Source: Mustelus asterias | Lineage: Eukaryota | Direction of reading: 5' to 3' | Length of the DNA: 64,000 nt | Assembly (NCBI RefSeq): GCF_964213995.1 | Contig: NW_027590215.1 | Location: forward strand, 248,001 to 312,000 | Shown here: positions 9,480-62,960 of the stretch, one piece after another | Position numbering within the stretch: position 1 is the first letter of the stretch | Layout: each line of letters begins with the position of its first letter | Notes under the pieces: model-generated | Database searches by the model: none | Seen by the model: only the letters and a program-made list of their open reading frames with translations | Told to the model about the DNA's origin: nothing | Made by a program: the position numbers and the translations under genes

Positions 9480-9810
9480 AGCAGTGTTTGACGCATGCGT
9501 AACGTGGACGATGGCAATGGAGAGGGACGTTCCTCTGTCTCATCAACAACCGGTAAGGATGCGGATACATGGAGGGAGGATTGGAACCGGCAGATGGACG
9601 GAGAGGGTTTCTAAATATCTGGTGAAGGTCTCAAACCTCTAATAGTAATCCGCAGGTCCCGTGTTTGCAGCTTCAGGTCTTTTTCCCGAGACGAGGCGAG
9701 GTTAACAGCCGCCATCTTGATTCAGCAGGGAGCGGAGCGCATGCGCTGGTGTCTTGGTGACGCAACAGAGAGTGGGTGGGGCTTAGGCATTTTCTGTTCC
9801 CAACCGGGTC
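9480..9810. promoter_or_regulatory. CpG-rich promoter/first exon between the divergent ZNF genes at 7814(-) and 14486(+)
   Basis: NRF1-type GCGCATGCGC (about 9737), YY1-type GCCGCCATCTTG (about 9708), splice donor ccg|gtaagg at about 9553; same module at 47660-47750. Confidence 0.6.
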
Positions 9811-19764: not shown

Positions 19765-20150
19765 TGGGGAACAATGGGTGGGGGCGGCGCTCCCGGGTCC
19801 GCGCGCCTGAACCCGGAGACGTCACCGCGAAGCAGAGTGATTGCTATTGGCTGATTCAGGCAGGGCTCCATTGTGCCGTCACAATGACTCAGAGGGGCGT
19901 TCCCAGCACACAGTGTCCCATTGGCAGCAATGTCACTGGTTACAGAAGCAAAACACTGCGGATTGGACACCAGCTCAGCGCGGCTGGCGGTCAAAGCCCC
20001 GCCCACCCCCACGTGGGCTCGGGTTCCGCCCTCTCATTGTCTATATGCGGCAGATTGACCAATGGCAACGTGTGGAGGACCGGATGGGCGCTGGTCCTCC
20101 AGCCAATCAGAGTCCGGGCTTTGTATCAATGACCGCGTGGAGCTCCCTGT
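19765..20150 (+). promoter_or_regulatory. CpG-island promoter of the ZNF gene at 21.8 kb
   Basis: GC boxes, several CCAAT/ATTGG boxes, GACGTCA, GGAGGACC-N11-GGTCCTCC at 20074-20100; homologous to 28800-28932(-) and 62480-62620(-). Confidence 0.7.
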
Positions 20151-21045
20151 GGACCTGAATGTGGGGGGTTCGATCAGTAAGTTTGTTGATGATACAAAAA
20201 TTGGTGGTAAATAGCGAGGAGGAAAGCCTGAGATTACAGGAGGATATGGACGGGCTGGTCAGATGAGCAGAACAGTGGCAAATGTAATTTAACCCCCTAA
20301 AGTCCGAGGTGATGCGTTTTGGGCGGACTAACAAGGCAAGGGAATAGACAATGAACAATAGGACACCAGGAAGTACAGAGGACCAGAGGGACCTTGGGGC
20401 GCATGTCCATAGGACCCTGAAGACAGTCGGACAAATTGATAAAGTGGTTAAGAAGGATATGGGATACTTGCCTTTTTTAACCGAGGCATAGAATATTAGA
20501 GCAAACAAGTTATGATTGAGCTGTATAAAAAGCTGGAGTACTGTCTGCAGTTCGGGTCGCCACATTTTAGCAAGGATGTGATTGCGCTAGAGAAGGTGCA
20601 GAGCAGATTCACCAGGATGCTGCCTGGGCTGGAAAGTTTCAGCCATGAAGAGAGGCTGGTGAGGCTGGAATTGTTCTCCCTAATTCAGAGAAGGCTGAGG
20701 GGGCCCTGATTGGGATGTACAAAAATATGAACCCTTAGTTCAAGTAACTTTAGTAGCTGGGTCAACATCCAGATTTAAGGTGAGGGGCAGGAGATTTAGA
20801 GGGGAATTGAGGGAAAAGATTTTCACCCTGAGGATTGTGGAATCAGGAACTCGCTGCCTGAAAGGGTGGGAGAGGTGGGAACGCTCAACATTAAGAAGCA
20901 TTTAGATGAGCACTTGAAATGCCATCGCTTACAAGGCTACTACTGACCAAATGGTGGAAGGTGGGATTAGAACAGATCGATGCTTGAGAGCTGGCACAAA
21001 TTCGATGGGCCAAAGGGCCTCTTGCTGTGCTTTAAAACTCTGAGG
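20150..21045 (+). mobile_element. Old CR1 3' fragment
   Basis: ISKFVDDTK..LEYCLQFGSPHFSKDVIALEKVQSRFTRMLPGL. Confidence 0.8.
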
Positions 21046-21797
21046 ACAGAAATATGACCAGTGTTGTTATGTGATAAATATCGGATGGTTCTGCAATAAA
21101 GTACATTTATTATTATTTCTAGTCTTGTAATATAGTACTGTAGCTCCGTCATATATTTCCAGTCAGAGTCATTACAGCATAGGAGGAGTTCATTGGACAA
21201 CTCCAGTCCCTGCCGAGCAATTCTGTCAGTCTGGAGTGGGTCCCATTCTGTAACCCTGCAGCACCCATCCAATCACATTCAAAATTACTGACCATCTCTG
21301 CTTGACTCCCCTCATAGGCAGCAAGGTCAAGAACATGACCAATCACAACCCCCTGTATCTTAACCAACTTACAGATTTAGTGGAATGAGTGGGGAAAGAA
21401 TGTTCCTTAGAAACTAGAATTCTAGTTCTGAATTTTGATCCTGTACTGACTGTGATTTCTGTCGCAAACTCCTTTACAGGAATATCAGAAGGTTAAGATC
21501 CATAGACGGAAATCCCAAACCAAACATCACATCAAGATCTGACAGTCGCTCAATTCATCTGGACCTCAACATCATCGACCTTTGAATCTGGAAGGAGAAA
21601 TATTTCTGTTTTTTCTGCTTCAGAATGTTTAAACATCAGTGTGACTGGAAAGCACCGAGACACAAACACACCCGAGTGAGAGTGTTCCAGTGCACTGAGT
21701 GTGGAAAGAGCTTCAACCAGTTACACAGCCTGAAAATACATCGCAGCATTCACAGCGGGGAGAGACTGTACCCGTGTTCTGTGTGAGATTTAACTGA

Positions 21798-23093
21798 TTG
21801 TTTACCTGGAGAGTCACAAGGACACCCGAACCATGGAGAAACTGGAAATGTGGGGACTGTGGGAAGGGATACAGGTTCCCATCTCAGCTGGAAACTCATC
21901 GATGCAGTCACACCGGGGAGCGGCCATTCACCTGCTCTGTGTGTGGGAAGGGATTCACTCGGTCATCCAATCTGCTGAGTCACAATCTCACTCATGCCAG
22001 TGAGAGACCCTTTAAATGCTCTGACTGTGGGACTGGTTTCAAAAGCTCTCGGGATCTGGTGTCCCACCAGCGCATTCACACTGAGGAGAGACCGTTCAGC
22101 TGCTCTCACTGCACAAAGCAGTTTCAAACATCATCCAACCTGCGGAAACACCAGCAAGTTCACACCGAGGAGAGGCCGTTCACCTGCTCTGTGTGTGGGA
22201 AGAGATTCACTCTGTCATCCAATCTGCTGAGACACCAGCAAGTTCACACTGGGGAAAGACCGTTCACCTGCTCCGAGTGTGGGAACAGATTCACCCGGTT
22301 ATCCAGCCTGCAGAGACACAACGTCATTCACAACAGCGAGAGACCCTTTAAATGCTCTGACTGTGGGAGCGGATTCAAAAGGTCTCAGGATCTGATGGAT
22401 CACCAGCGCACTCACACTGTGGAGAGACCGTTCAGCTGCTCTCACTGCTCAAAGACATTTAGAAGATCATCCCACCTGCGGAATCACCAACGAGTTCACA
22501 CGAGGGAGCGGCCATTCACCTGCTCAGTGTGTGGGAGGGGATTCACTCAGTCATCCAGCCTGCAGAGACACAAAGTCACTCACAGCAATGAGCGACCCTT
22601 TAAATGCTCTGACTGCGGGAAAGATTTCAAAAGGTCTCACCAACTGTTGGTCCACCAGCGCATTCACACTGAGGAGAGACCATTCAGCTGCTCTCACTGC
22701 ACAAAGAGATTTACAACATCATCCTACCTGTGGGAACACCAGCGAGTTCACACCAATGAGCGACCATTTAAATGCTCTGACTGTGGGAGTGGCTTCAAAA
22801 GGTCTCAGGATCTGGTGTCCCACCAGCGCATTCACACTGAGGAGAGACCGTTCAGCTGCTCTCACTGCACAAAGAGATTTAGAACTTCATCCAACCTGCG
22901 GAAACATGAGCGAGTTCACACCGGAGCGAAACCGTTCACATGCTCTCTGTGTGGGAAGGGATTCAGTGATTCATGCAACCTGCGAGAACACCAGCGAGTT
23001 CACGCCAGGGAGAGGCCATTCACCCGCTCGAAGTGTGGGAAAGGATTTAGTGATTCATCCCTCCTGCTGAGACACCAGCGAGTTCACAATTGA
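21798..23093 (+). CDS. C2H2 ZNF with 15 fingers (last lacks first Cys); family ATG at 21833 is out of frame, so possibly a pseudogene
   Basis: Open 431-codon frame starting at TTG; ATGGAGAAAC--TGGAAATGT lacks 2 nt compared with paralog ATGGAGAAACCGTGGAAATGT. Confidence 0.65.
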   Translation: MFTWRVTRTPEPWRNWKCGDCGKGYRFPSQLETHRCSHTGERPFTCSVCGKGFTRSSNLLSHNLTHASERPFKCSDCGTGFKSSRDLVSHQRIHTEERPFSCSHCTKQFQTSSNLRKHQQVHTEERPFTCSVCGKRFTLSSNLLRHQQVHTGERPFTCSECGNRFTRLSSLQRHNVIHNSERPFKCSDCGSGFKRSQDLMDHQRTHTVERPFSCSHCSKTFRRSSHLRNHQRVHTRERPFTCSVCGRGFTQSSSLQRHKVTHSNERPFKCSDCGKDFKRSHQLLVHQRIHTEERPFSCSHCTKRFTTSSYLWEHQRVHTNERPFKCSDCGSGFKRSQDLVSHQRIHTEERPFSCSHCTKRFRTSSNLRKHERVHTGAKPFTCSLCGKGFSDSCNLREHQRVHARERPFTRSKCGKGFSDSSLLLRHQRVHN

Positions 23094-23292
23094 TTACTGG
23101 GGTTGGATTCTGCTGTTATTGCTGCTGTTAATCACATCCAGGACTGAACCATGTTCACTCTGACAGTTGGTGAAGTGGGAGGGTCGGAGGGTTTCTTTCT
23201 GTTGGACTGGCTGGTCTCACGACTTTGCTTCCAGTGGGCTGATGCTCTTTGAGCCTGGGAGAGCACATTTCCACTGAAATGATCCACTAAAG

Positions 23293-23622
23293 CGGCACGG
23301 TAGCACAGTGGTTAGCACTGCTGCTTCACAGCTCCAGGGTCCTGGGTTCGATTCCCGGCTCGGGTCACTGTCTGTGTGGAGTTTGCACATTCTCCTCGTG
23401 TCTGCGTGGGTTTCCTCCCAGTGCTCCGGTTTCCTCCCACAGTCCAAAGATGTGCGGGTTAGGTTGATTGGCCAGGTTAAAAATTGCCCCTTAGAGTCCT
23501 GAGATGCGAGGATTAGCGGGTAAATGTGTGGGGGTAGGGCCTGGGTGGGATTGTGGTCGGTGCAGACTCGATGGGCCGAATGGCCTCCTTCTGCACTGTA
23601 GGGTTTCTATGTTTCTATGTTT
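23293..23622 (+). mobile_element. Young HE1/V-SINE-like copy with CTAAAG TSD in the ZNF 3' flank
   Basis: CTAAAG at 23287-23292 and 23623-23628; the paralogous site at about 50255 is empty. Confidence 0.92.
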
Positions 23623-28539: not shown

Positions 28540-29090
28540 GGTGCAGGTGTCCTTGCCTCTCCGTTGGGTGACCAATCAGTTGAAGCCTTGTCCACACACA
28601 GAACACGGGTACAGTCTCTCCCTGCTGTGAATGGTGTGATATTTATTCAGGCTGTGTCACTGGTTAAAGCTCTTTAGTCAGTGCTCTGGAACACTCTCAC
28701 TCGGGTGTGGCAGTGTGTTGGTGCTTTTCCACTCACTGATGGCCGAAGTCTTTTCAAATCCAAGTGGAAGCTTTAATCTGAAGCTCAGTGGCCAACTTCC
28801 GCATTGAGACGTCACAATAAAGCGCTGCCTGAATCAGCCAATAGGAATTACTCGGCTCCGCAGGGCCGCGTCGGGGTTCCATGGCGCAGGCCCGGCTCGC
28901 GGACCCGGGAGCCCCGCCCCCGCCCATTGTTCCCCCTCCCCCTGCATCTCCTCCAGCCACGGTTTCCAGGCAACCGGCTGGCGGCTCCGGCCAGAGCGAG
29001 AAGCCGCTCGGTGATCTCCCCCTCCCCCCTCTCTCTCTGCGGCTGCTGCTCCAAAAAGAGATCGAGAACGACCGCTGGCGGCAGCCGCAC

Positions 29091-29251
29091 TGCGCCTGCT
29101 CCGGACAGCTGGGCTCAGCAGCGCTCTCTGCGCCTGCTCCGGACAGCTCGGCCCAGCAGCGCTCTCTGCGCCTGCTCCGGACAGGTCGGCGCAGCAGCGC
29201 TCTCTGCGCCTGCTCCGGACAGCTCGGCTCAGCAGCGCTCTCTGCGCCTGC
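29091..29251 (+). repeat. 38-bp GC-rich tandem repeat, 4 full copies plus a partial
   Basis: tgcgcctgctccggacagctcggctcagcagcgctctc at 29091, 29129, 29167, 29205. Confidence 0.95.
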
Positions 29252-29363
29252 GTGCTGGGCTGCCAGCTGAGGGAGTGGGGGAGGGGACTTTGCAAAATCT
29301 CTTCCCATCATTTTCTTCCAAGTCCCGCAGTTTGATTTGAAACAGAACAGTTTCTGTTTGTAG

Positions 29364-29528
29364 CTTCACCACAGACTCAAACTTCACCACAGACTCAAAC
29401 TTCACACACAGACTCAAACTTCACCACAGACTCAAACTTCACACATAGACTCAAACTTCACCACAGACTCAAACTTCACACATAGACTCAAACTTCACCA
29501 CAGACTCAAACTTCACCACAGACTCAAA
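29364..29528 (+). repeat. 18/19-bp tandem repeat, 9 copies
   Basis: cttcaccacagactcaaa / cttcacaca(c/t)agactcaaa. Confidence 0.95.
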
Positions 29529-29880
29529 CCTCCTCCTCTGGGCAACATCTGTGAGGAAAACACTTTCTTTCTCCCCCTGGGAAATACAGAGACAGAGAAA
29601 TTCTCTGGAACTGGAATTAGAGCTAAATATACTGAGGGGGAAAATGTGATTTTGTGGAACCTGTTTTTATTGTCTGAGCTTTTTAAAGTGTAATTTATCC
29701 TGTCTATTCAAACACTGTTTCTTAATGCATGATTCAGTGATGTTAATTTTAGATTAATTTTTTAAATGAAACATTGTCTTTCAGTTTATTCTATTGGGAT
29801 TTGTGGAATTTGTTTATTATAAGGTGACCATGAGGATCGTAACAACATTGATATGTCTGGTGTTGTTATATGGTGCATAA

Positions 29881-40554: not shown

Positions 40555-41481
40555 TCACTCGTGAACTTGCTGGTGTCTCAGCAGCTCCGATGAAACTCTG
40601 AAACGCTTTCCACACTGAGAGCAGGTGAATGGCCTCTCCCCTGTGTGAACTCGCTGGTGTGTCTGCAGGTCAGATGAGTTCGTAAATCCCTTCCCACACT
40701 GAGAGCAGATGAATGGTCTCTCCCCAGTGTGAACTCGCTGGTGTATCTGCAGGTGGGATGACCGAATGAATCCCTTCCCACACTGAGAGCAGGTGAACGG
40801 CCTCTCCCCTGTGTGACGGCGCTGGTGTCTCTGCAGGTCGGCTGACTGAGTGAATTCTTGCCCACACTGAGAGCAGATGAACGGTCTCTCCCCAGTGTGA
40901 ACTCGTTCGTGCGTCCGCAGGTTGGATGAGTTCATGAATCCCTTCCCACACTGAGAACAGGTGAATGGCCTCTCCCCAGTGTGAACTCGTTGGTGTCTCT
41001 GCAGGCTGAATGACCGAGTGAATCCCTCTCCACACTGAGAGCAGGTGAACGGCCTCTCCCCAGTGTGAACTCGCTGGTGTCTCTGCAGGTGGGATGATCG
41101 AGTGAATCCCTTCCCACACTGAGAGCAGGTGAATGGTCTCTCTCCAGTGTGAACTCGCTGGTGTGTCAGCAGGCTGGATGACTGAATGAATCCCTGCCCA
41201 CATTGAGAGCAGGTGAATGGCCTCTCCCCAGTGTGAACTCGCTGGTGTGACTGCAGGTTGGATAACCGAGTGAATCCCTCCCCACACTGCGAGCAGGTGA
41301 ATGGCCTCTCCCCTGTGTGACGTAGCTGGTGTGATTGCAGGTTGGATACCCGAGTGAATCCCTTCCCACACTGAGAGCAGATGAACGGCCTCTCCCCAGT
41401 GTGGCTGCGCCGATGATCTTCCAGCAGGGATGGGTATCTGTATCCCTTCCCACAGTCCACACATTTCCATGGTTTCTCCAT
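40555..41481 (-). CDS. C2H2 zinc-finger protein, 308 aa, 11 fingers
   Basis: accATGg MEKPWKC at 41481 within ORF 40555-41541; acceptor ttttacag at about 41833. Confidence 0.87.
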
Positions 41482-42154
41482 GGTGCAGGTGTCCTTACCT
41501 CTCTCTTGAGTGAACAATTCGTTGAAACTTCGTCCACACACACAACAAGATTACAGTCTCTACCCGCTGTGAATGGTGTGATATTTATTCAGACTGTGTA
41601 ACTGGTTAAAGCTCTTTAGTCAGTGCATTGGAACACTCTCACTCAAGTGTGTCAGAGTGTTGATGCTTTTTCACTCACACTGACATTTCAAATCTTTTCA
41701 AATCGACAGACTGGACAATCATTTCTCCTTCTGGATTCAAAGTTCGATGGTATTGAGGTCCCAAGGAATATGACTCTGTCAGATCTAGACGTGAAGTTTG
41801 AGATTTCAGCCTGTGATTCCTCTTTCAATATCCTGTAAAATGAGTTTACAAAAGTCATCAGTGTCAGTACAGGATAGAAATTCAGAACAGACAATTTCTA
41901 TGGAACATTCTTTCCTCTCTCATTCCCCAAAAGCTGGAAATCTCCATCCCACACACTCTCTCCCCATTCTCATCAGGTCTGGCAGCATCTGTATGGAGAG
42001 AAAATAACTGATGTTTCAGAGCTTTGACAAAGGGTCATCTAGACAAGAAACATCAGCTCTTTTCTCTCCTTACAGATGCTGCCAGACCTGCTGACATTTT
42101 CCAGCATTTTCTCTCTTGGTTTCAAACTCCTGCATCCGCAGTAATTTGCTTTTA

Positions 42155-43384: not shown

Positions 43385-43760
43385 CCATTACCCGCACTGC
43401 GCATGCTTCAGGTCCCGCCCCTCATTCACTCCGATTGGTTGGAGGACCAGCCACTCCCGCTCGGTCCTCCAGCCCCGCCCCATCTTCCTATTGGCCCGGA
43501 GCTGCCGTCAATCAGTCCCCCGGGCATTGTGATGTGGAGCATGCGCAGTGTCATTGCTGTCCTTGGCGCTTGTTTGTCCCGGAGAAGCGGAGTCAGCGTT
43601 AGGCGGTGGCTGGGAGGATTTGGAAACACTTTGTGGATCCGCAAACCCTTCAGAATCATTGTCAGCTCCCTGGTTTGCAGCTGCGGGGCTTCTCCCTCCC
43701 TCCCTCCCGGGAACAGGCCCAGGTTAACGGCCCCATCCTGGCTCAGCCACTGGAGGATGG
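43385..43760. promoter_or_regulatory. CpG promoter between the divergent ZNFs at 41481(-) and 45471(+)
   Basis: TGCGCATG twice, GC boxes, ATTGG twice, GGAGGACC-N14-GGTCCTCC at 43441-43470. Confidence 0.65.
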
Positions 43761-44172
43761 TTCACATCAGAGGATGGGGGAGGGGGACAATAAATAAGAG
43801 GTTACACTTTGGCCTCAAATCAATGAGGACTCTGATCTCTGGGAAGGAAGGAAACCCTGGGAGGTGGGCGGGGAGGATTCACAAACACCCACTGGAGGCC
43901 CCAACACCCCCAGTAAAAAGCTGCAGCTCCCGGGTTTGCAGCTTTTTCCCGGGAGGGAGTTGGGGAAGTTTTGTGGAGACAATTCCCGGCTGGTTCAGTT
44001 AGTGGTTCCTGGAGCTCAGAAACCCTGAGTTAGAATCCTGAACCCCACATTGGGTGGTTGTTTTATGAAATACTTTTTATTTATTAATCATTAAAATATT
44101 AATTTGTTTTGAAAAATCATTTTATAGCATTTGTGAAAATGCGCATTGAAATAGCAATTCTCCCAATGTATT

Positions 44173-47399: not shown

Positions 47400-47760
47400 T
47401 ATTCATTCCACAGGAGCCTATTGCGCAGGCGCAGTGCTATATCTGGAGCGTGCGCAGTGTCACTTTGCCCGGAGCCCTATGAATGCGGGAGCGGCTTTTT
47501 TCAGAGGGTGAGTCAGTGGGGCTGCGGGAGAAATGTAGCCGGGAGTCGGGGTAGGGAGGGAGCTATGGCTTCACAAACATCCGCTGTAGGCCGCACGGCC
47601 CGAATAAGACCCTGCAGGTCCCGGGTTTACAGCTCCCAGGCTTTTATCCCGGGAACAGGCCCCGGTTATCGGCCGCCATCTTGTTTCAGCGGGGAAGGAG
47701 AGCGCATGCGCCGCTGTCGGTGGCGGGTCACAATGGGCGTGGTTTCAGGGGCTGGTTCAG
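47400..47760 (+). promoter_or_regulatory. CpG promoter/first exon of the ZNF gene at 49218
   Basis: TGCGCAGGCGCA, donor cagagg|gtgagt at about 47508, YY1 GCCGCCATCTTG and NRF1 GCGCATGCGC downstream. Confidence 0.65.
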
Positions 47761-48405: not shown

Positions 48406-49016
48406 GAGGCCAACATCTGTGAGTAAAACACTTTCTTTTCTCCCCCTTTCCATTTCTTTTCTCATTCTGGGGGAAATTGGGGAGTTGCAGCAACTGAAGG
48501 GAAAGGAAGTGAATCCAGTCGGTATGTTCCACACATTGTTAGTCCAGTCAGATAGACATATATCTGTCTGGCAGCCTGCATGGAGATTTCCAGCTCTCTG
48601 TGTCCAGGACAGGAAGCAGTGAGCATAGATCTATCAATCAGCACCGACAGGAGAATTGGGAGGGTGAATATTAGATACAGCAGAGTGAGAATGGAGGGAG
48701 AGTGTGTGGGATGGAGATTTGCAGCTCTTGGGGAATGAGAGTGGAAATAATGTTCCATGGAAACTCGAATTGTCTGTTCTGAATTTCTATCCTGTACTGA
48801 CAGTGATAACCTTTGTAAACTCCTTTTACAGGATATCAGAAGTTGAGGATTTTACAGACAGAAATCTCAAACCAAACATCACATCAACATCTGACAGAGT
48901 CACTCAATTCATCGGGACCTGAATATCTTGGGTCTTTGTATCCAGAAGGAAAAATGTTTCTCTGTTCTGTCGGCTTTAGCAGTCTTTAAACATCAGTGTG
49001 ACTGGAACAGGACTCA

Positions 49017-53382: not shown

Positions 53383-56300
53383 TCAGTACCACTTACCCGC
53401 CTGATCCCCATAACCCTTAATTCCCTTACCGATCAGGAATCCATCCATCCGCGCTTTAAACATATTCAGCGAGGTAGCCTCCACCACCTCAGTGGGCAGA
53501 GAATTCCAGAGATTCACCACCCTCTGGGAGAAGAAGTTCCTCCTCAACTCTGTCTTAAACCGACCCCCCTTTATTTTGAGGCTGTGTCCTCTAGTTTTAA
53601 CTTCCTTACTAAGTGGAAAGAATCTCTCCGCCTCCACCCTATCCAGCCCCTGCATTATCTTATAAGTCTCCATAAGATCCCCCCTCATCCTTCTAAACTC
53701 CAACAAGTACAAACCCAATCTCCTCAGCCTCTCCTCATAATCCAAACCCCTCATCTCCGGTATCAACCTGGTGAACCTTCTCTGCACTCCCTCCAATGCC
53801 AATATATCCTTCCTCATACAAGGGGACCAATACTGCACACAGTATTCCAGCTGCGGTCTCACCAATGCCCTGTACAGGTGCATCAAGACATCCCTGCTTT
53901 TATATTCTATCCCCCTCGCAATATAGGCCAACATCCCATTTGCCTTCTTGATCACCTGTTGTACCTGCAGACTGGGCTTTTGCGTCTCATGCACAAGGAC
54001 CCCCAGGTCCCTTTGCACGGTAGCATGTTTTAATTTGTTTCCATTGAGATAGTAATCCCATTTGTTATTATTTCCTCCAAAGTGTATAACCTCGCATTTC
54101 TCAACGTTATACTCCATTTGCCATATCCTCGCCCACTCACTCAGCCTGTCCAAATCTCTCTGCAGATCTTCTCCGTCCTCCACACGATTCACTTTTCCAC
54201 TTATCTTTGTGTCGTCTGCAAACTTCGTTACCCTACACTCCGTCCCCTCCTCCAGATCATCTATATAAATGGTAAACAGTTGCGGCCCGAGTACCGATCC
54301 CTGCGGCACGCCACTAGTTACCTTCCTCCAACCGGAAAAACACCCATTTATTCCGACTCTTTGCTTCCTGTCGGATAGCCAGTCCCCAATCCACTTTAAC
54401 ACACTACCCCCAACTCCGTGTGCCCTAATCTTCTTCAGCAGCCTTTTATGGGGCACCTTATCAAACGTCTTTTGGAAATCCAAAAACACCGCATCCACCG
54501 GTTCTCCTCCATCAACCGCCCTAGTCACATCTTCATAAAAATCCAACATGTTCGTCAAGCACGACTTTCCCCTCATGAATCCATGCTGCGTCTGATTGAT
54601 CGAACCATTTCTATCCAGATGCCCTGCTATCTCCTCTTTAATAATGGATTCCAGCATTTTCCCTACTACAGACGTTAAGCTGACCGGCCTATAGTTACCC
54701 GCCTTTTGTCTCCTTCCTTTTTTAAACAGCGGCGTAACATTAGCCGTTTTCCAATCAACCGGCACTACCCCAGAATGCAACGAGTTTTGATAAATAATCA
54801 CTAACGCATCCTCTATTACCTCTGACGTTTCTTTCAATACCCTGGGATGCATTCCATCCGGACCCGGGGACTTGTCCACCTTCAGTCCCATTAGTCTACC
54901 CAGCACTGCCTCTCTGGTAACATTAATTGTATTAAGTATTTCTCCTGCTGCCAACCCTCTATCGTTAATATTTGGCAAACTATTTGTGTCGTCCACCGTG
55001 AAGACCGACACAAAAAACTTATTTAAAGACTCAGCCATATCCTCATTTCCCACTATTAACTCCCCCCTCTCGTCCTCCAAGGGTCCAACATTCACTCTAG
55101 CCACTCTATTCCTTTTTATATATTTATAAAAACTTTTACTATCATTTTTTATATTAATTGCTAGCCTAGCTTCATAGTCTATCCTTCCTTTCTTTATCGC
55201 TTTCTTAGTCTCTCTTTGTTGTTTCTTAAATTTTTCCCAATCACTTGTTTCTCCACTATTTTTGGCCACTCTGTACGCAGCTGTTTTTATTTTAATACTC
55301 TCCTTTATTTCCTTCGTTGTCCACGGCTGGTTCTCCCTTTTCTTACAATCCTTGTTTTTTGCTGGAATATATTTTTGCTGAGAACTGAAAAGGATCTCCT
55401 TAAAAATCCTCCACTGTTCCTCAGCTATCCTACCTGCCAGCCTGCTCTCCCAGTCTACCTTAGCCAATTCATCCCTCATCCTATCATATTTCCCTCTGTT
55501 CAAACAGAGGACACTGGTTTGGGACCAAACTTTCTCCTCTTCCATCTGAATCAGAAATTCGACCATATTGTGGTCACTAGACCCAAGAGGGTCCTTCACA
55601 ATAAGATCCTTAATTCTACCTACCTCGTTACACAATACCAGATCCAAAATAGCTCGTTCCCTCGTCGGTTCCGTAACATGCTGTTCAAGGAAACTATCCC
55701 GACAGCATTCTAAGAACTCTTCCTCCATTCCACCCTTACTGACTTGAGTCTGCCAGTCAATGTGCATGTTGAAGTCCCCCATGATTATTGCCGTTCCGTT
55801 TTTACACGCATCCCTTATCTGCTTGTTTATAGCCCTCCCTACCTCAACATTATTATTTGGGGGCCTATATACCACACCTACTAGTGTCTTTCTCCCTCTA
55901 CTATTCCTCATCTCTACCCATAATGATTCCACGTTTTGTTCCTCAGAGCCTATGTCATCCCTCAGTACTACCCTGATATTATCTCTTATTAATAGCGCGA
56001 CCCCACCACCTTTTCCTTCCTGTCTATTCTTCCTAAACGCCTGATACCCCTGGATATTCATCTCCCAGTCCTGGTCACCTTTCAGCCACGTTTCTGTAAT
56101 GGCCACTAGATCGTACCCACTTGTGCTGATTTGCACCATCAACTCATTTACCTTGTTCCGAATGCTTCGTGCATTCAGGCAAAGTGTCCTTATTCCAGCT
56201 TTTATCTGGACCCGCTTTGATGAGTCGCGAACACCCTCTCCCTCTACTCCCTTTTCTAAATTACCGCCTTCATTCACTTGCACCCTCTCCTCTACCATTA

Positions 56301-56388
56301 ATTTTGTAATTCCCCTTACCCCTGCATCCTCCCCCCCATCAATTAGTTCCTTGATCCTGGTCAACTCTTCTAGCTCCCCTCCCCCCAA
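53383..56388 (-). CDS. CR1 ORF2: APE endonuclease plus reverse transcriptase
   Basis: NARSI, ITETW, GGGVA, VYRPP, MGDFN, SDH (APE); KSPGPDG, LDFQKTFDKV, VPQGSVLGP, FADDTK (RT); no stops in 1001 codons. Confidence 0.96.
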   Translation of the reverse strand: MGGGELEELTRIKELIDGGEDAGVRGITKLMVEERVQVNEGGNLEKGVEGEGVRDSSKRVQIKAGIRTLCLNARSIRNKVNELMVQISTSGYDLVAITETWLKGDQDWEMNIQGYQAFRKNRQEGKGGGVALLIRDNIRVVLRDDIGSEEQNVESLWVEMRNSRGRKTLVGVVYRPPNNNVEVGRAINKQIRDACKNGTAIIMGDFNMHIDWQTQVSKGGMEEEFLECCRDSFLEQHVTEPTRERAILDLVLCNEVGRIKDLIVKDPLGSSDHNMVEFLIQMEEEKVWSQTSVLCLNRGKYDRMRDELAKVDWESRLAGRIAEEQWRIFKEILFSSQQKYIPAKNKDCKKRENQPWTTKEIKESIKIKTAAYRVAKNSGETSDWEKFKKQQRETKKAIKKGRIDYEARLAINIKNDSKSFYKYIKRNRVARVNVGPLEDERGELIVGNEDMAESLNKFFVSVFTVDDTNSLPNINDRGLAAGEILNTINVTREAVLGRLMGLKVDKSPGPDGMHPRVLKETSEVIEDALVIIYQNSLHSGVVPVDWKTANVTPLFKKGRRQKAGNYRPVSLTSVVGKMLESIIKEEIAGHLDRNGSINQTQHGFMRGKSCLTNMLDFYEDVTRAVDGGEPVDAVFLDFQKTFDKVPHKRLLKKIRAHGVGGSVLKWIGDWLSDRKQRVGINGCFSGWRKVTSGVPQGSVLGPQLFTIYIDDLEEGTECRVTKFADDTKISGKVNRVEDGEDLQRDLDRLSEWARIWQMEYNVEKCEVIHFGGNNNKWDYYLNGNKLKHATVQRDLGVLVHETQKPSLQVQQVIKKANGMLAYIARGIEYKSRDVLMHLYRALVRPQLEYCVQYWSPCMRKDILALEGVQRRFTRLIPEMRGLDYEERLRRLGLYLLEFRRMRGDLMETYKIMQGLDRVEAERFFPLSKEVKTRGHSLKIKGGRFKTELRRNFFSQRVVNLWNSLPTEVVEATSLNMFKARMDGFLIGKGIKGYGDQAGKWY

Positions 56389-56393
56389 CCTAT

Positions 56394-57323
56394 CTAGTTT
56401 AAATTCTCCCCAGTAGCCTTAGCCAACCTACCGGCCAGGATATTGGTCCCCGTGTGATTCAAGTTCCACCCGTTTTTTGTATACAGATCACCCCTGCCCC
56501 TAAAGAGGTCCCAATGGTCCAGGAACCTGAATCCCTGCCCCCTGCACCAGTCCCTCAGCCACACATTCATCCTCCACCTCACTCCATTCCTGCCCTCACC
56601 TTCCCGTGGCACAGGCAGTAATCCTGAGATTACTACCTTTGCTTTCCTCTTTCTCAGCTGTCTCCCTAATTCCCTGTACTCCTTTTTCATGACCCCTTCT
56701 CCCTTCCTACCCACATCAGCGGTACCAATATGTACCGCTACCTCAGGCTCCTCTCCCTCCCACCTCAGGATTTCCGGGACGCGACGAGCGACATCCTGGA
56801 TCCCGGCCCCAGGGAGGCAGACCACCATGCGAGAATCCCGCCTACCTCCGCAGAAACGCCTGTCTGTCCCCTTCACCATCGAGTCCCCGATTAATACCGC
56901 CTTCCTCCTCTTTTCCTTAGCCCTCTGAGTTACAGGGCTGGACTCCACTGCGGAGACACGGCCACTGCTGCTTCCCCCAGGCGGGCTGTCCCCCCCAGCA
57001 GTACTCAAGCAGGAGTACTTGTTGTGCAGGGGCAAATCCACCGGGGTGCTCTCAACCACCCTAGCCTTACCCTTCCTGGCCGTCACCCACTTGGCCTCCT
57101 CCCGTGGCCCTGGTGTGACCACCTGATGATAGCTCTTGTCTATCACCTCCTCATTCTCCCTCATCAGCCTAAGATCCTCGAGCTGCAGTTCCAGCTCCCT
57201 AACACGGTCCCTCAGGAACCGCAGCTCGACACACCCCTCACAGATGTGGATGTCCGGGAGGCCAGATGCCTCCAGGACCTCCCACATCCTACACTGGGAA
57301 CAGCACACTGGTTTCACACTCAT
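56394..57323 (-). CDS. CR1 ORF1: Cys zinc-binding motif, coiled coil, SGNH esterase-like domain
   Basis: CSQC..CEGC, LRDRVRELELQLEDL, LIGDSMV, LPGA, VHIGT, LNHTG; first ATG at 57323. Confidence 0.92.
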   Translation of the reverse strand: MSVKPVCCSQCRMWEVLEASGLPDIHICEGCVELRFLRDRVRELELQLEDLRLMRENEEVIDKSYHQVVTPGPREEAKWVTARKGKARVVESTPVDLPLHNKYSCLSTAGGDSPPGGSSSGRVSAVESSPVTQRAKEKRRKAVLIGDSMVKGTDRRFCGGRRDSRMVVCLPGAGIQDVARRVPEILRWEGEEPEVAVHIGTADVGRKGEGVMKKEYRELGRQLRKRKAKVVISGLLPVPREGEGRNGVRWRMNVWLRDWCRGQGFRFLDHWDLFRGRGDLYTKNGWNLNHTGTNILAGRLAKATGENLN

Positions 57324-59181
57324 ACTGGACACTTTATGTCAAGTAAGACCGTGAAAAGTTAATAAGAGTGTAAGGAAACAAAAACTCACCCCTGCTCGTC
57401 CAAGCCCTGTGAGCCAAAGCCCTGACAGCTCACTCAACTTCCCACTCACTCTGCTGCCCGCTACGATGCTGCCCGCTGTATACTTTGGTGCACTTTTAAA
57501 CCCTCCAAAAACTTCCCCTGGCCTCTCCTGGCCCTACTTCCGGTTATGAAAAAAACCTCCGATTTTAAACCCTTTATCTCCTTTTTATCCTTTATCTCCT
57601 TTTGCCACCACTCCCTCTGTTTTGCGGGAGGGTCGTGGGGATTCCAATCAGAACTAATCATTTTATCATAAAAGTAAAATACTGCAGATTCTGGAATCTG
57701 AAACAAAAACAGAAAATGCTGGAAAATCTCAGCAGGTCTGACAGCATCTGTGGAGAGAGAATAGAGCCAATGTTTCGAGTCTGGATGACCCTTCATAAGA
57801 GCTCTTCTGAAATGTAATCCAGACTCGAAAGATTGGCTCTATTCTCTTATCATTTTAATCAATATGTTTCTTGTTCTTAGTTTCCAAATGGCAGGTAAGA
57901 GACCTGTCCAGTCCCCAATTGAGCTCTGATTTTTCACTGGCCATGCTTGGGTAAGATTATAACTATTAGAATCTACTCTCAGAGGTCCGCTTTTCAGTCC
58001 ATTGCTACTTGGAGTATGCCGTCACTTCACCGACTATCAGGTCACAAATATATGATAAAATAATTTAAATAATGCCTGAAAACGCTTTGAACCAACTACC
58101 TATCATCGTTTGTTGATTGGTCAGACCCCCTTTTTACAGATTCAAGTATCTCAGCCGCTGAACACCAGCCAGTCCTGGAATAAGTTTAATTCTCACTCAT
58201 TCTGAGTAAATATTCTCACCAGGTCCTCTATCAGGGCCCTGCTAAGCAGCTTTCATGGTCCGTGATTGCAGAAACTGAGCAGTCACAGGAATGTGGTCAA
58301 GATAGTCCAGTCCCATAATGCCTCACATTCAATCTGCAGTCCTTCAATTATAACAGAATATGTGGCTGTGTGTAGCTGCCTCGGCCGTGGTCAACCCCAA
58401 CACTGCCTTCCTGAACTGCTACAATGCCTGAGGTGTAAGTACACCCACAGTGCTGTTAGGGAGGGATTTCCAGCTACACATTCCAGACTTTCACTGGACT
58501 GTAGGTGGATACCAGATTGATATATTCCATTCAACCACACCCAAGGTGAGTTATTCCAATTCCTTTATTGTCCAGGAAAGTATAATCACAATATCTTTAA
58601 AACAGAAATTAAACATTCCTATTTAATTTCAGGTATTAACACATTCTGTTAGTTTGTTCTTTATTGTCAAGGTCAGGCTGGGGTTGTTCCCCTTGGAGCA
58701 AAGGAGGTTGAGGGGAGATTTGATAGAGGTGGACAAGATTCGGACAGGTTTAGATAAGGTGGACAAAGAAAAGCTGTTCCCATTAGCTGATGGGACAAGG
58801 ACGAAGGGGGTGCAGATTTTGGTTCAGATATGTGGGATGGGGGGTGGAGGGGCGGGGAGGGGGGCGATGTGAGGAAGAATATTTTGATGCAGCGAATGGT
58901 AATGACCTGGAACTTGCTGCCTACGAGGGTGGAGGAAGTGGAGACAATAAACAATTACAAAGGAAATTGGATGAGCATTTGGGGGCTTTCAAACAGAAAT
59001 ACTAACTAAATATCTCTTAACTACCGAGCACCAGCCACTGGAGGCAAAATCGTGAGACCGGCCAGTCCAGCAGAAAGAAACCCTCTGACCCTCCCCATTG
59101 ACCAACTGTGAGAATGAACAAAATGCAGTCCTGGATGTAACTGAGAGCAGAAACAACAACAGCAGAATCCAACCCCTGGAA

Positions 59182-60024
59182 TCACTCGTGAATTTGCTGG
59201 TGTCTCAGCAGCTGGGATGAAACTCTGAATCCCTTCCCACACTGAGAGCAGGTGAACGGCCTCTCCCCAGTGTGAACTCGCTGGTGTGTCCGCAGGCTGG
59301 ATGAGTTAGTGAATCCCTTCTCACACTTCGGGCAGGTGAATGGCCTCTGTCCGGTGTGAACTCGCTGGTGTGTCTGCAGACTGGATGAGGCAATAAATCC
59401 CTTCCCACACTGAGAGCAGGTGAATGGTCTCTCCCCAGTGTGAACTCGCTGGTGTGTCTGCAGGCTGGAAGACTTGGTGAATCCTTTCTCACGCTGAGAG
59501 CAGGTGAACGGCCTCTCTCCGGTATGAACTCGCTGATGTTTCTGCAGGGTGGATAATTGAGTGAATCCCTTCCCACACACAGTGCAGGTGAATGGTCTCT
59601 CCCCAGTGTGAACTCGCTGGTGTGTCCGCAGGGTGGATAACTGACGGAATCCCTTCCCACACACAGGGCAGGTGAATGGTCTCTCCCCAGTGTGAACTCG
59701 CTGGTGTCTCTGCTGGTTGGATAACTGACTGAATCTCTTCCCACACACGCAGCAGGTGAATGGCTTCTTCCCAGTGTGAACCCGCTGGTGTTTCTGCAGG
59801 CTGGATGACTGAGTGAATCCCTTCCTACACACAGAGCAGGTGAATGGCCTCTTCCCAGTGTGAACTAGTTGGTGTGTCCGCAGTTCGGATGACTGAGTGA
59901 ATCCCTTTCCACACACACAGCAGCTGAAGGGCCTCTCCCCAGTGTGACTGCGTCGATGAATTTCCAGCCGAGATGGGCACATGTATCCCTTCCCACAGTC
60001 CCCACATTTCCACAGTTTCCCCAT
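59182..60024 (-). CDS. C2H2 zinc-finger protein, 280 aa, 10 fingers (7th has CSQR)
   Basis: accATGg MGKLWKC ORF; acceptor ttttacag at about 60386. Confidence 0.85.
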   Translation of the reverse strand: MGKLWKCGDCGKGYMCPSRLEIHRRSHTGERPFSCCVCGKGFTQSSELRTHQLVHTGKRPFTCSVCRKGFTQSSSLQKHQRVHTGKKPFTCCVCGKRFSQLSNQQRHQRVHTGERPFTCPVCGKGFRQLSTLRTHQRVHTGERPFTCTVCGKGFTQLSTLQKHQRVHTGERPFTCSQREKGFTKSSSLQTHQRVHTGERPFTCSQCGKGFIASSSLQTHQRVHTGQRPFTCPKCEKGFTNSSSLRTHQRVHTGERPFTCSQCGKGFRVSSQLLRHQQIHE

Positions 60025-60072
60025 GGTTCGGGTCCTTGTGACTCTGTAGTTTAAACAATCAGTTAAATCTCA

Positions 60073-60180
<108 letters not shown>

Positions 60181-60779
60181 TCAGGTGTGTGTGTGTGTGT
60201 CTTGGTGCTTTTCCAGTCACACAGTTACTTAAAATCTTCAGAAGCTGACAGAACAGAGAAACATTTCCCCTTCTAGATTCAAAGGTCAGTGATATTGAGG
60301 TCCCGATGAATTGGGTGATTCTGTCAGATGTTGATGTGACGTTTGGTTTGAGATTTCTGTCTGTAAATTCTCACCTTCTGATATGCTGTAAAAGGAATTT
60401 ACAAAAGTCATCAGTGTCAGCACAGGATAGAAATTCCGAACAGACAAATCAAGTTTCTAAGGAACATTCTTTTCTCTCTCATTCCCCAAAAGCTGTGAAT
60501 CTCCATCCCACACACTCTCCCTCCATTCTCACTCTGCTGTATCTAATATTCACCCTCCATATTCTCCTGAAGGTGCTGATTGACAGATCCATGCTCACTG
60601 CTTCCTGTCCTGGACACAGAGAGCTGGAAATCTCCATGCAGGCTGCCAGACAGATGTATGTCTATATGACTGGACCAAAAATGTATGGATTATATAGACT
60701 GGACTCACTTCCTTTCCCTTCAGTGACTAAGGGCGGACAAATCACCAGGACCCAATGAACTGCGTGCCAGCTTTTTAAT

Positions 60780-62249: not shown

Positions 62250-62960
62250 TGATCAGTTGCTGCAAGTCAACAATTTCCCCCAGAATGAGAAACAAAATGG
62301 AAAGGGTGAGAAAAGAAAGTGTTTTACTCACAGATGTTGAAGACAGAAGGAAGTTTGAGCCTGTCTGAAGCTCAATCTTCATTCAGAGAAAGAGCAGCAG
62401 CAGCTTCGCTGGGCAGGAATGAGCAGTTGAACAAGCTCATTGTGCAACTTCCGCATTCAGACAATGTGGGAGCTCTGATTGGCTGGAGGATCAGAGGCCT
62501 TCCGGTCCTCCAGAGTTCCCATTGGTCAATCCCCCGCAGACAGACAATGAGGGGCGGAGCCCCACGTGGGGATGGGCGGGCCTGTGCCCTCCAGCCGCGC
62601 TGAGCTGTTGTCCAATTGGAAAGGCTGGAAGACCCAGACAGACAATGGTCAGTGCGCCGGCTTTGTCCCGGGCCCCGCCCCACACCCGCACATGCGCATT
62701 CCCCCAAAACCCGCACATGCGCACTTCTGATTCACTTCCGCTCACCAGCTCTGGCCAATGGGAAGACTTGGAGGACCGGAAAGACCGTGGTCCTCCAGCC
62801 AATCAGAGCGCGGGCTTTGTGTGCGTGAAGATTGAGCTTCAGACAGACTCAAACTTCCTTCAGTCTCAACCTAAAAGAGGCCAACATCTGTGAGTAAAAC
62901 ACTTTCTTTTCTCATTCTGGGGGTAATTGGAGAATTGCAACAACTGAAGGAAAAGGAAGT
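62250..62960. promoter_or_regulatory. Mirror-image bidirectional promoter with two first exons (donors at about 62331(-) and 62890(+))
   Basis: 62252-62530(-) and 62750-62950(+) are homologous inverted copies; GC boxes and GCACATGCGCA twice in the centre. Confidence 0.75.

Follow-up and report, generated by a model that had tools for sequence, protein, structure and literature searches.

The stretch of DNA analysed here, 64,000 nucleotides from the shark Mustelus asterias and referred to below as the window, carries clustered C2H2 zinc-finger (ZNF) exons interspersed with LINE fragments. A CR1-like LINE on the minus strand (53383-57338) is apparently full-length: its first ORF encodes 314 aa, and behind it an unbroken ORF of 1011 aa contains endonuclease and reverse-transcriptase domains. 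Among the 120 homologues listed for one ZNF, the two highest identities (58% and 55%) belong to cartilaginous fishes, and the leader that precedes the fingers in the window's ZNF exons is present in those two proteins alone. Moreover, neither KRAB nor any other effector family appears among the Pfam matches listed for three ZNF exons (25 of 29 for one of them). A sawshark database protein (P0055) carries a histone-domain segment fused to this ZNF family, probably through a join of gene models, a hint that clusters of histone and ZNF genes adjoin each other; PMC11979771 describes clusters of both on catshark chromosome 13. Four copies of a promoter cassette, designated A to D, together with a decayed fifth copy, are found in the window, and their positions relative to the associated exons are as follows:

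19962..20058, plus strand: upstream promoter of A, with CCAAT, GC boxes and E-box
20059..20107, plus strand: copy A, with CCAAT 20059-20063, left arm 20073-20081, 11-nt spacer, right arm 20093-20101 and CCAAT 20103-20107
21480..23455, plus strand: C2H2 ZNF exon downstream of A, acceptor AG ending at 21479, 16 fingers over several frames
40555..41832, minus strand: C2H2 ZNF exon downstream of D, 11 fingers
43434..43494, minus strand: copy D, with CCAAT 43494-43490, left arm 43471-43463, 14-nt spacer, right arm 43448-43440 and CCAAT 43438-43434
59182..60385, minus strand: C2H2 ZNF exon downstream of C, 10 fingers
62332..62440, minus strand: probable non-coding exon 1 of the C gene, GT donor 62331-62330, 5' end approximate
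62478..62525, minus strand: copy C, with CCAAT 62525-62521, left arm 62512-62504, 11-nt spacer, right arm 62492-62484 and CCAAT 62482-62478
62607..62650, plus strand: decayed fifth copy, with CCAAT and a left arm with one mismatch (nhmmer E=0.014)
62755..62803, plus strand: copy B, with CCAAT 62755-62759, left arm 62769-62777, 11-nt spacer, right arm 62789-62797 and CCAAT 62799-62803
62815..62889, plus strand: probable non-coding exon 1 of the B gene, GT donor 62890, 79% like that of C, 5' end approximate

The elements in the promoter of A comprise CCAAT, GC box, E-box and PBX-type GATTGAC motifs. An earlier note on this DNA had reported a palindrome between CCAAT boxes at 20074-20100, 43441-43470, 62485-62511 and 62770-62796, and all four sites were recovered with the spacers it had given; a motif search of the window returned seven strand-matches, corresponding to these four sites, versus none in each of 100 dinucleotide shuffles. 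The palindromic character of the arms also stands, with the arm length corrected to 9 bp (TGGAGGACC and GGTCCTCCA) and a closing G-T pair on the arms in all four copies. Sites A and B lie on the plus strand and sites C and D on the minus strand, and once each is read on the right strand, all four become one oriented cassette composed of CCAAT, TGGAGGACC, spacer, GGTCCTCCA, one base and CCAATC. The linker from the first CCAAT to the left arm ranges from 8 to 18 nt across the copies, and the right arm is located exactly one base before the second CCAAT in all four. From start to start, the CCAAT boxes are 44 bp apart in A (20059/20103), 44 bp in B (62755/62799) and 43 bp in C, which agrees with the 43-44 bp previously noted at three sites, and 56 bp in D, whose linker contains an inserted GC box. 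The right arm of C carries one mismatch.

Perfect inverted repeats of at least 9 bp with short spacers number 16 in the window versus 0-6 in 10 shuffles, and what stands out is that one arm is common to three of the 16. Another perfect 9-bp inverted repeat, with a 15-nt spacer, is found at 43915-43947, on the plus-strand side of the promoter of D. The fifth copy was detected by searching the whole window with an nhmmer profile of the four copies; its right arm and second CCAAT are absent within 62607-62650, and the other 11 rows of that search were reverse matches of palindromes or had E > 0.1.

Copies A, C and D are each oriented toward a ZNF exon within the window, with acceptors 1.4-2.1 kb away, and copy B precedes a family exon 1 whose ZNF exon would lie past the window edge. 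B and C are arranged head to head, and downstream of each comes a short exon 1 that has a GT donor and is related to its counterpart. The cassette promoters have a GC content of 0.61 and a CpG observed/expected ratio of 0.60-0.72, versus 0.38 for the window, and no TATA-like hexamer was found downstream of the sites. The second CCAAT is separated from the exon-1 donor by 93 bp in B and 151 bp in C, which fits the typical location of CCAAT boxes 60-100 bp before the transcription start site (TSS; PMC11802806). However, of 11 finger arrays located in the window, only three lie downstream of a cassette copy, and two of the four family exon-1 donors have a cassette upstream, whereas the other two (29543 and 48411) do not. 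One presumed-RNA contig joins the end of exon 1 to sequence matching the start of a ZNF exon at 48832, two others read on into the GT past the end of exon 1 and are ambiguous, and some such contigs cover the arms; the RNA status of both contig sets (X15 and X16) is a guess.

A LINE-like fragment (20165-21480, plus strand) starts about 60 bp past copy A, no family exon-1 donor was found between this copy and its ZNF exon, and the ZNF frame downstream is shifted right after the likely start codon; the gene of A may be damaged. On the minus strand, the promoter at 28740-28935 is 76% like the upstream half of the promoter of A, runs directly into a ZNF exon with no obvious intron and shares a 30-bp piece with exon 1 of C. 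Two tandem arrays (29081-29251 and 29362-29532) are present within a promoter/exon-1 region, and the second of them reiterates a short segment of the family exon 1. Moreover, a second, palindrome-free promoter family comprises 9574-9753, 43705-43944 and 47567-47718, which are related to one another; two of its members contain GCCATCTT and GCGCATGCGC motifs, and one is the plus-strand side of the promoter of D.

The cassette recurs within longer blocks of homology. Identity is 84% over 151 bp between A and C and 81% over 69 bp between A and B; upstream of A and C, 80 of 91 aligned bases agree, and the region of exon 1 is 79% identical between B and C over 100 bp. D resembles the other copies over only about 44 bp, and the rest of its promoter is not alignable to those of A, B and C. 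Four of 24 sequencing runs were mapped onto the window. In whole-genome reads of a related species (X21; 1,922.5 Mb, 1,711 reads placed at 80% likeness), read depth reaches 352 on the cassette of C and 387 on that of B; it is 310 and 252 at the two donors of exon 1, but 114 and 83 immediately upstream of the cassettes. With shark genome sizes of 2.9-4.3 Gb (PMC11979771), these depths correspond to about 530-870 copies per pile-up, or 1,100-1,650 if the pile-ups add, an estimate that uses the general range for sharks, which may not be that of the X21 species. In the relative's reads the cassette is as abundant as the family exon 1, and, therefore, its recurrence reflects gene duplication: judging by sequence comparison, the cassette has spread together with exon 1, and the sequence farther upstream varies among subfamilies. 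The proposal of a family-wide cis element beside NF-Y-type CCAAT boxes is supported by the CpG-rich promoters, the orientation toward ZNF exons and an abundance equal to that of exon 1. A scan of metagenome contigs for the full cassette gave no matches. An 18-mer of the right arm plus CCAAT matched at 26 loci, where the left arm occurred in none (best 3-5 mismatches) and none aligned much past the seed, and these loci were treated as chance.

Conservation within the cassette is uneven. Across the four copies, 17 of 18 arm columns are invariant versus three of nine in the linker and three of 11 in the spacer (6/20 together). Relative to the majority base, A, B and C have one mismatch among 54 arm bases versus seven among 33 spacer bases (Fisher p=0.004, post hoc), a comparison made without D on account of its different spacer length; moreover, the four copies were found by their intact arms, which bears on any such contrast. 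The earlier view that arms are conserved and spacers differ holds in the four window copies and is not clearly family-wide in the relative's reads. The spacers are not independent of one another either: with all read on one strand, any two of A, B and C agree at 6-8 of 11 bases, C having previously been compared on the wrong strand, and the majority spacer GGAAGGACTCT is seen in both X21 pile-ups (on B and on C). The listed spacer positions match the consensus in 335/347, 284/342, 289/342 and 233/347 reads (67-97%), and arm positions carry 6-28% variants; one arm position is about as variable as the spacer positions. This is a right-arm position in the pile-up on C, with 250/345 = 72.5% consensus, where variability is inflated by C itself carrying the variant; two other arm positions have 20/332 (6.0%) and 34/389 (8.7%) variant reads. 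These variants are among 40 of 158 rows listed, and the 80% likeness selects against divergent spacers. The family-wide contrast between arms and spacer, accordingly, looks weak in the relative's reads. Despite its 14-nt spacer and unrelated flanks, D retains both arms and the single base between right arm and CCAAT, and on its sequence it is the most telling copy for arm constraint. Extra constraint on the arms is likely, as judged from the four copies.

The reading that we prefer, and to which we would give an even chance, is that the motif constitutes a cassette in the proximal promoters of a shark C2H2 ZNF family that has greatly expanded, and would act as double-stranded DNA, probably marking a predicted protein-binding site. 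Two NF-Y trimers on the same-strand CCAAT boxes, 43-44 bp or about four helical turns apart, would hold the promoter open, and the two inverted half-sites of 9-10 bp between the boxes would be read as sequence by two copies of one putative factor, which would tolerate a spacing of 11-14 nt and for which a zinc-finger protein is the most plausible candidate. The lack of compensatory change between the arms and this tolerance of 11-14 nt together suggest two half-sites and one flexible factor. Of the dimeric factor proposed earlier, the two inverted half-sites are retained, and a rigid dimer is unlikely because the spacer, 11 nt in A, B and C, is 14 nt in D. NF-Y-type CCAAT boxes have the flank consensus RRCCAATSR, which, compared by eye, fits seven of the eight boxes, the upstream box of D having A in place of S. 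An ETS core (GGAA/T) would, in the majority form, overlap the left arm-spacer junction, and it is proposed that this part of the spacer is conserved because the ETS core overlaps there. Directly after the left arm, A has GGAT and both B and C have GGAA, and the change in A keeps the core valid, ETS cores being GGA(A/T) (PMC2905244); in D the ETS core is absent. Counted against the module are several ZNF promoters in the window without the cassette and a fifth copy without a right arm.

Similar arrangements are known elsewhere. Human NF-Y-bound regions show a peak of double CCAAT boxes 43 bp apart, for which the authors state that associated factors, if any, remain to be seen (PMC4889920). The shark promoters resemble this class in their two CCAAT boxes 43-44 bp apart (PMC4889920), A, B and C fitting it and D (56 bp) not. 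They also resemble the 26- and 36-bp classes, in which factor sites, there Sp1 sites and E-boxes, are found between the boxes (PMC4889920); however, the shark cassette has a 9-bp inverted repeat in that position instead of a GC box or E-box, and the PMC4889920 data are human. The FiNZ-ZNF/znf genes of zebrafish chromosome 4 are likewise a large, clustered C2H2 family in which subsets share a promoter type (PMC10547256; bioRxiv 10.1101/2021.08.09.455629), although the promoter classes there are TATA/sharp versus broad initiation (PMC10547256), and the retrieved portion of the preprint text (bioRxiv 10.1101/2021.08.09.455629) does not mention CCAAT or NF-Y. In A, B and C, the ETS site is matched by ACC-GGA(A/T) at the left arm-spacer junction (PMC2905244). 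However, such a site covers just the last three bases of one arm and leaves the symmetry unexplained. ZBTB7A/FBI-1 binds variably spaced inverted repeats, a likeness to flexible half-sites, and its motif presumably differs from the cassette half-site at two of seven bases. A GGGAGGAC-like motif that we attribute to ZNF263, a tetrapod KRAB-SCAN protein, resembles the half-site, and what we take to be the NFI palindrome has a similar TGG...GCCAA pattern with spacing off by one base; nothing in the literature searched bore out these three likenesses. Histone H4 GGTCCG, REST, CTCF and nuclear-receptor half-sites were dropped by eye for mismatches at core positions. No description of the palindrome or of shark ZNF promoters was found in the literature searched, most subscription journals being outside its coverage. 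Double-CCAAT modules and promoter types common within ZNF clusters are already known (PMC4889920; PMC10547256; bioRxiv 10.1101/2021.08.09.455629). The shark ZNF promoter cassette with its palindrome is a real and, within the literature searched, previously undescribed feature.

The main rival, unlikely in our judgement, is that the palindrome is a functionless passenger, an ancestral small inverted duplication between functional CCAAT boxes that was spread by ZNF duplication and whose copies stay similar through recent amplification or gene conversion. In its favour, the flanks of A and C are nearly as conserved as the motif (80/91 upstream), a consensus spacer exists across the family, reads frequently carry arm variants, and other promoters have lost the copy or hold a decayed one. 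In the majority form the pairing reaches 12 pairs with one G-T mismatch, as expected of a longer palindrome in decay. Nevertheless, D keeps exactly the arms and CCAAT boxes with spacer, linker and flanks diverged, and the contrast of 17/18 with 6/20 invariant columns is hard to reach neutrally. The arms could also be conserved for separate reasons, with a merely historical symmetry, the left one as the flank of an ETS site and the right one as an extended proximal NF-Y flank or a monomer site phased to NF-Y. This is quite improbable: the ETS core is present in three of four copies, the spacer base after GGAA is G in 96.5% of reads (335/347) and the right arm is always one base from CCAAT, but D keeps the whole left arm without an ETS core, and the flank preferences of ETS and NF-Y span 2-3 bases, not nine. 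Far less credible is an unrelated transposon remnant at ZNF promoters, with MITE-like terminal inverted repeats or an LTR promoter. The copy number is high, and NF-Y-bound double CCAAT boxes do occur in LTRs, although in a 19-bp class (PMC4889920). However, the shared sequence runs past both arms, the aligned copies show no target-site duplication, each copy is directed toward a ZNF gene, and X21 depth continues across exon 1 and the donor. The motif is very unlikely to belong to an unrelated transposable element; the whole promoter might still descend from one in the remote past.

The 5' RNA hairpin considered by the earlier note, in transcripts starting upstream, fares poorly, and we see little chance for it or for its DNA counterpart, a cruciform opening the promoter. 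Every copy does fold into a stem of 10-12 pairs (as RNA, -14.6 to -20.8 kcal/mol), on the sense strand the closing G-U pair does not vary, spacer length varies among copies, and some presumed-RNA contigs (records 15, 21 and 22) span both arms. Against this, none of the 10 arm pairs changes on both sides, nine never varying and one being broken in C, a weak test with four near-invariant copies; folding z-scores are just -0.9 to -2.3, and no Rfam family matches at the gathering score in the window. Moreover, the normal position of CCAAT at -60/-100 from the TSS (PMC11802806) would place the motif upstream of the RNA. Contig depth in X15 is 114-206 over exon 1 versus 16-42 over the arms, a poor measure, and the X16 contigs have no such step at B. 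A six-read variant with a left-arm change complementing the right-arm change of C was not counted, its right arm not being visible.

Returning to a protein-bound cassette, ZNFs of zebrafish have been proposed to exert negative feedback on ZNF genes (PMC10547256), which makes autoregulation a reasonable hypothesis for the shark family. The half-sites might be the target of a ZNF from the same family, so that one member, bound between NF-Y trimers, would control hundreds of paralogues in a feedback loop, a speculative proposal with a slim chance of being right. The recognition-helix residues of seven ZNF arrays in the window were compared with a zinc-finger recognition code, and none clearly spells the half-site, a comparison too weak to decide either way.

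The wider question addressed by these promoters is how large, fast-evolving ZNF clusters are switched jointly. Without a bound factor, the cassette would be an ordinary promoter motif, specific to the lineage and spread by gene duplication. As an element of hundreds of shark ZNF promoters, it would provide a DNA bait for pull-down together with many natural variants, and it might point to a partner for the 43-bp double-CCAAT class.
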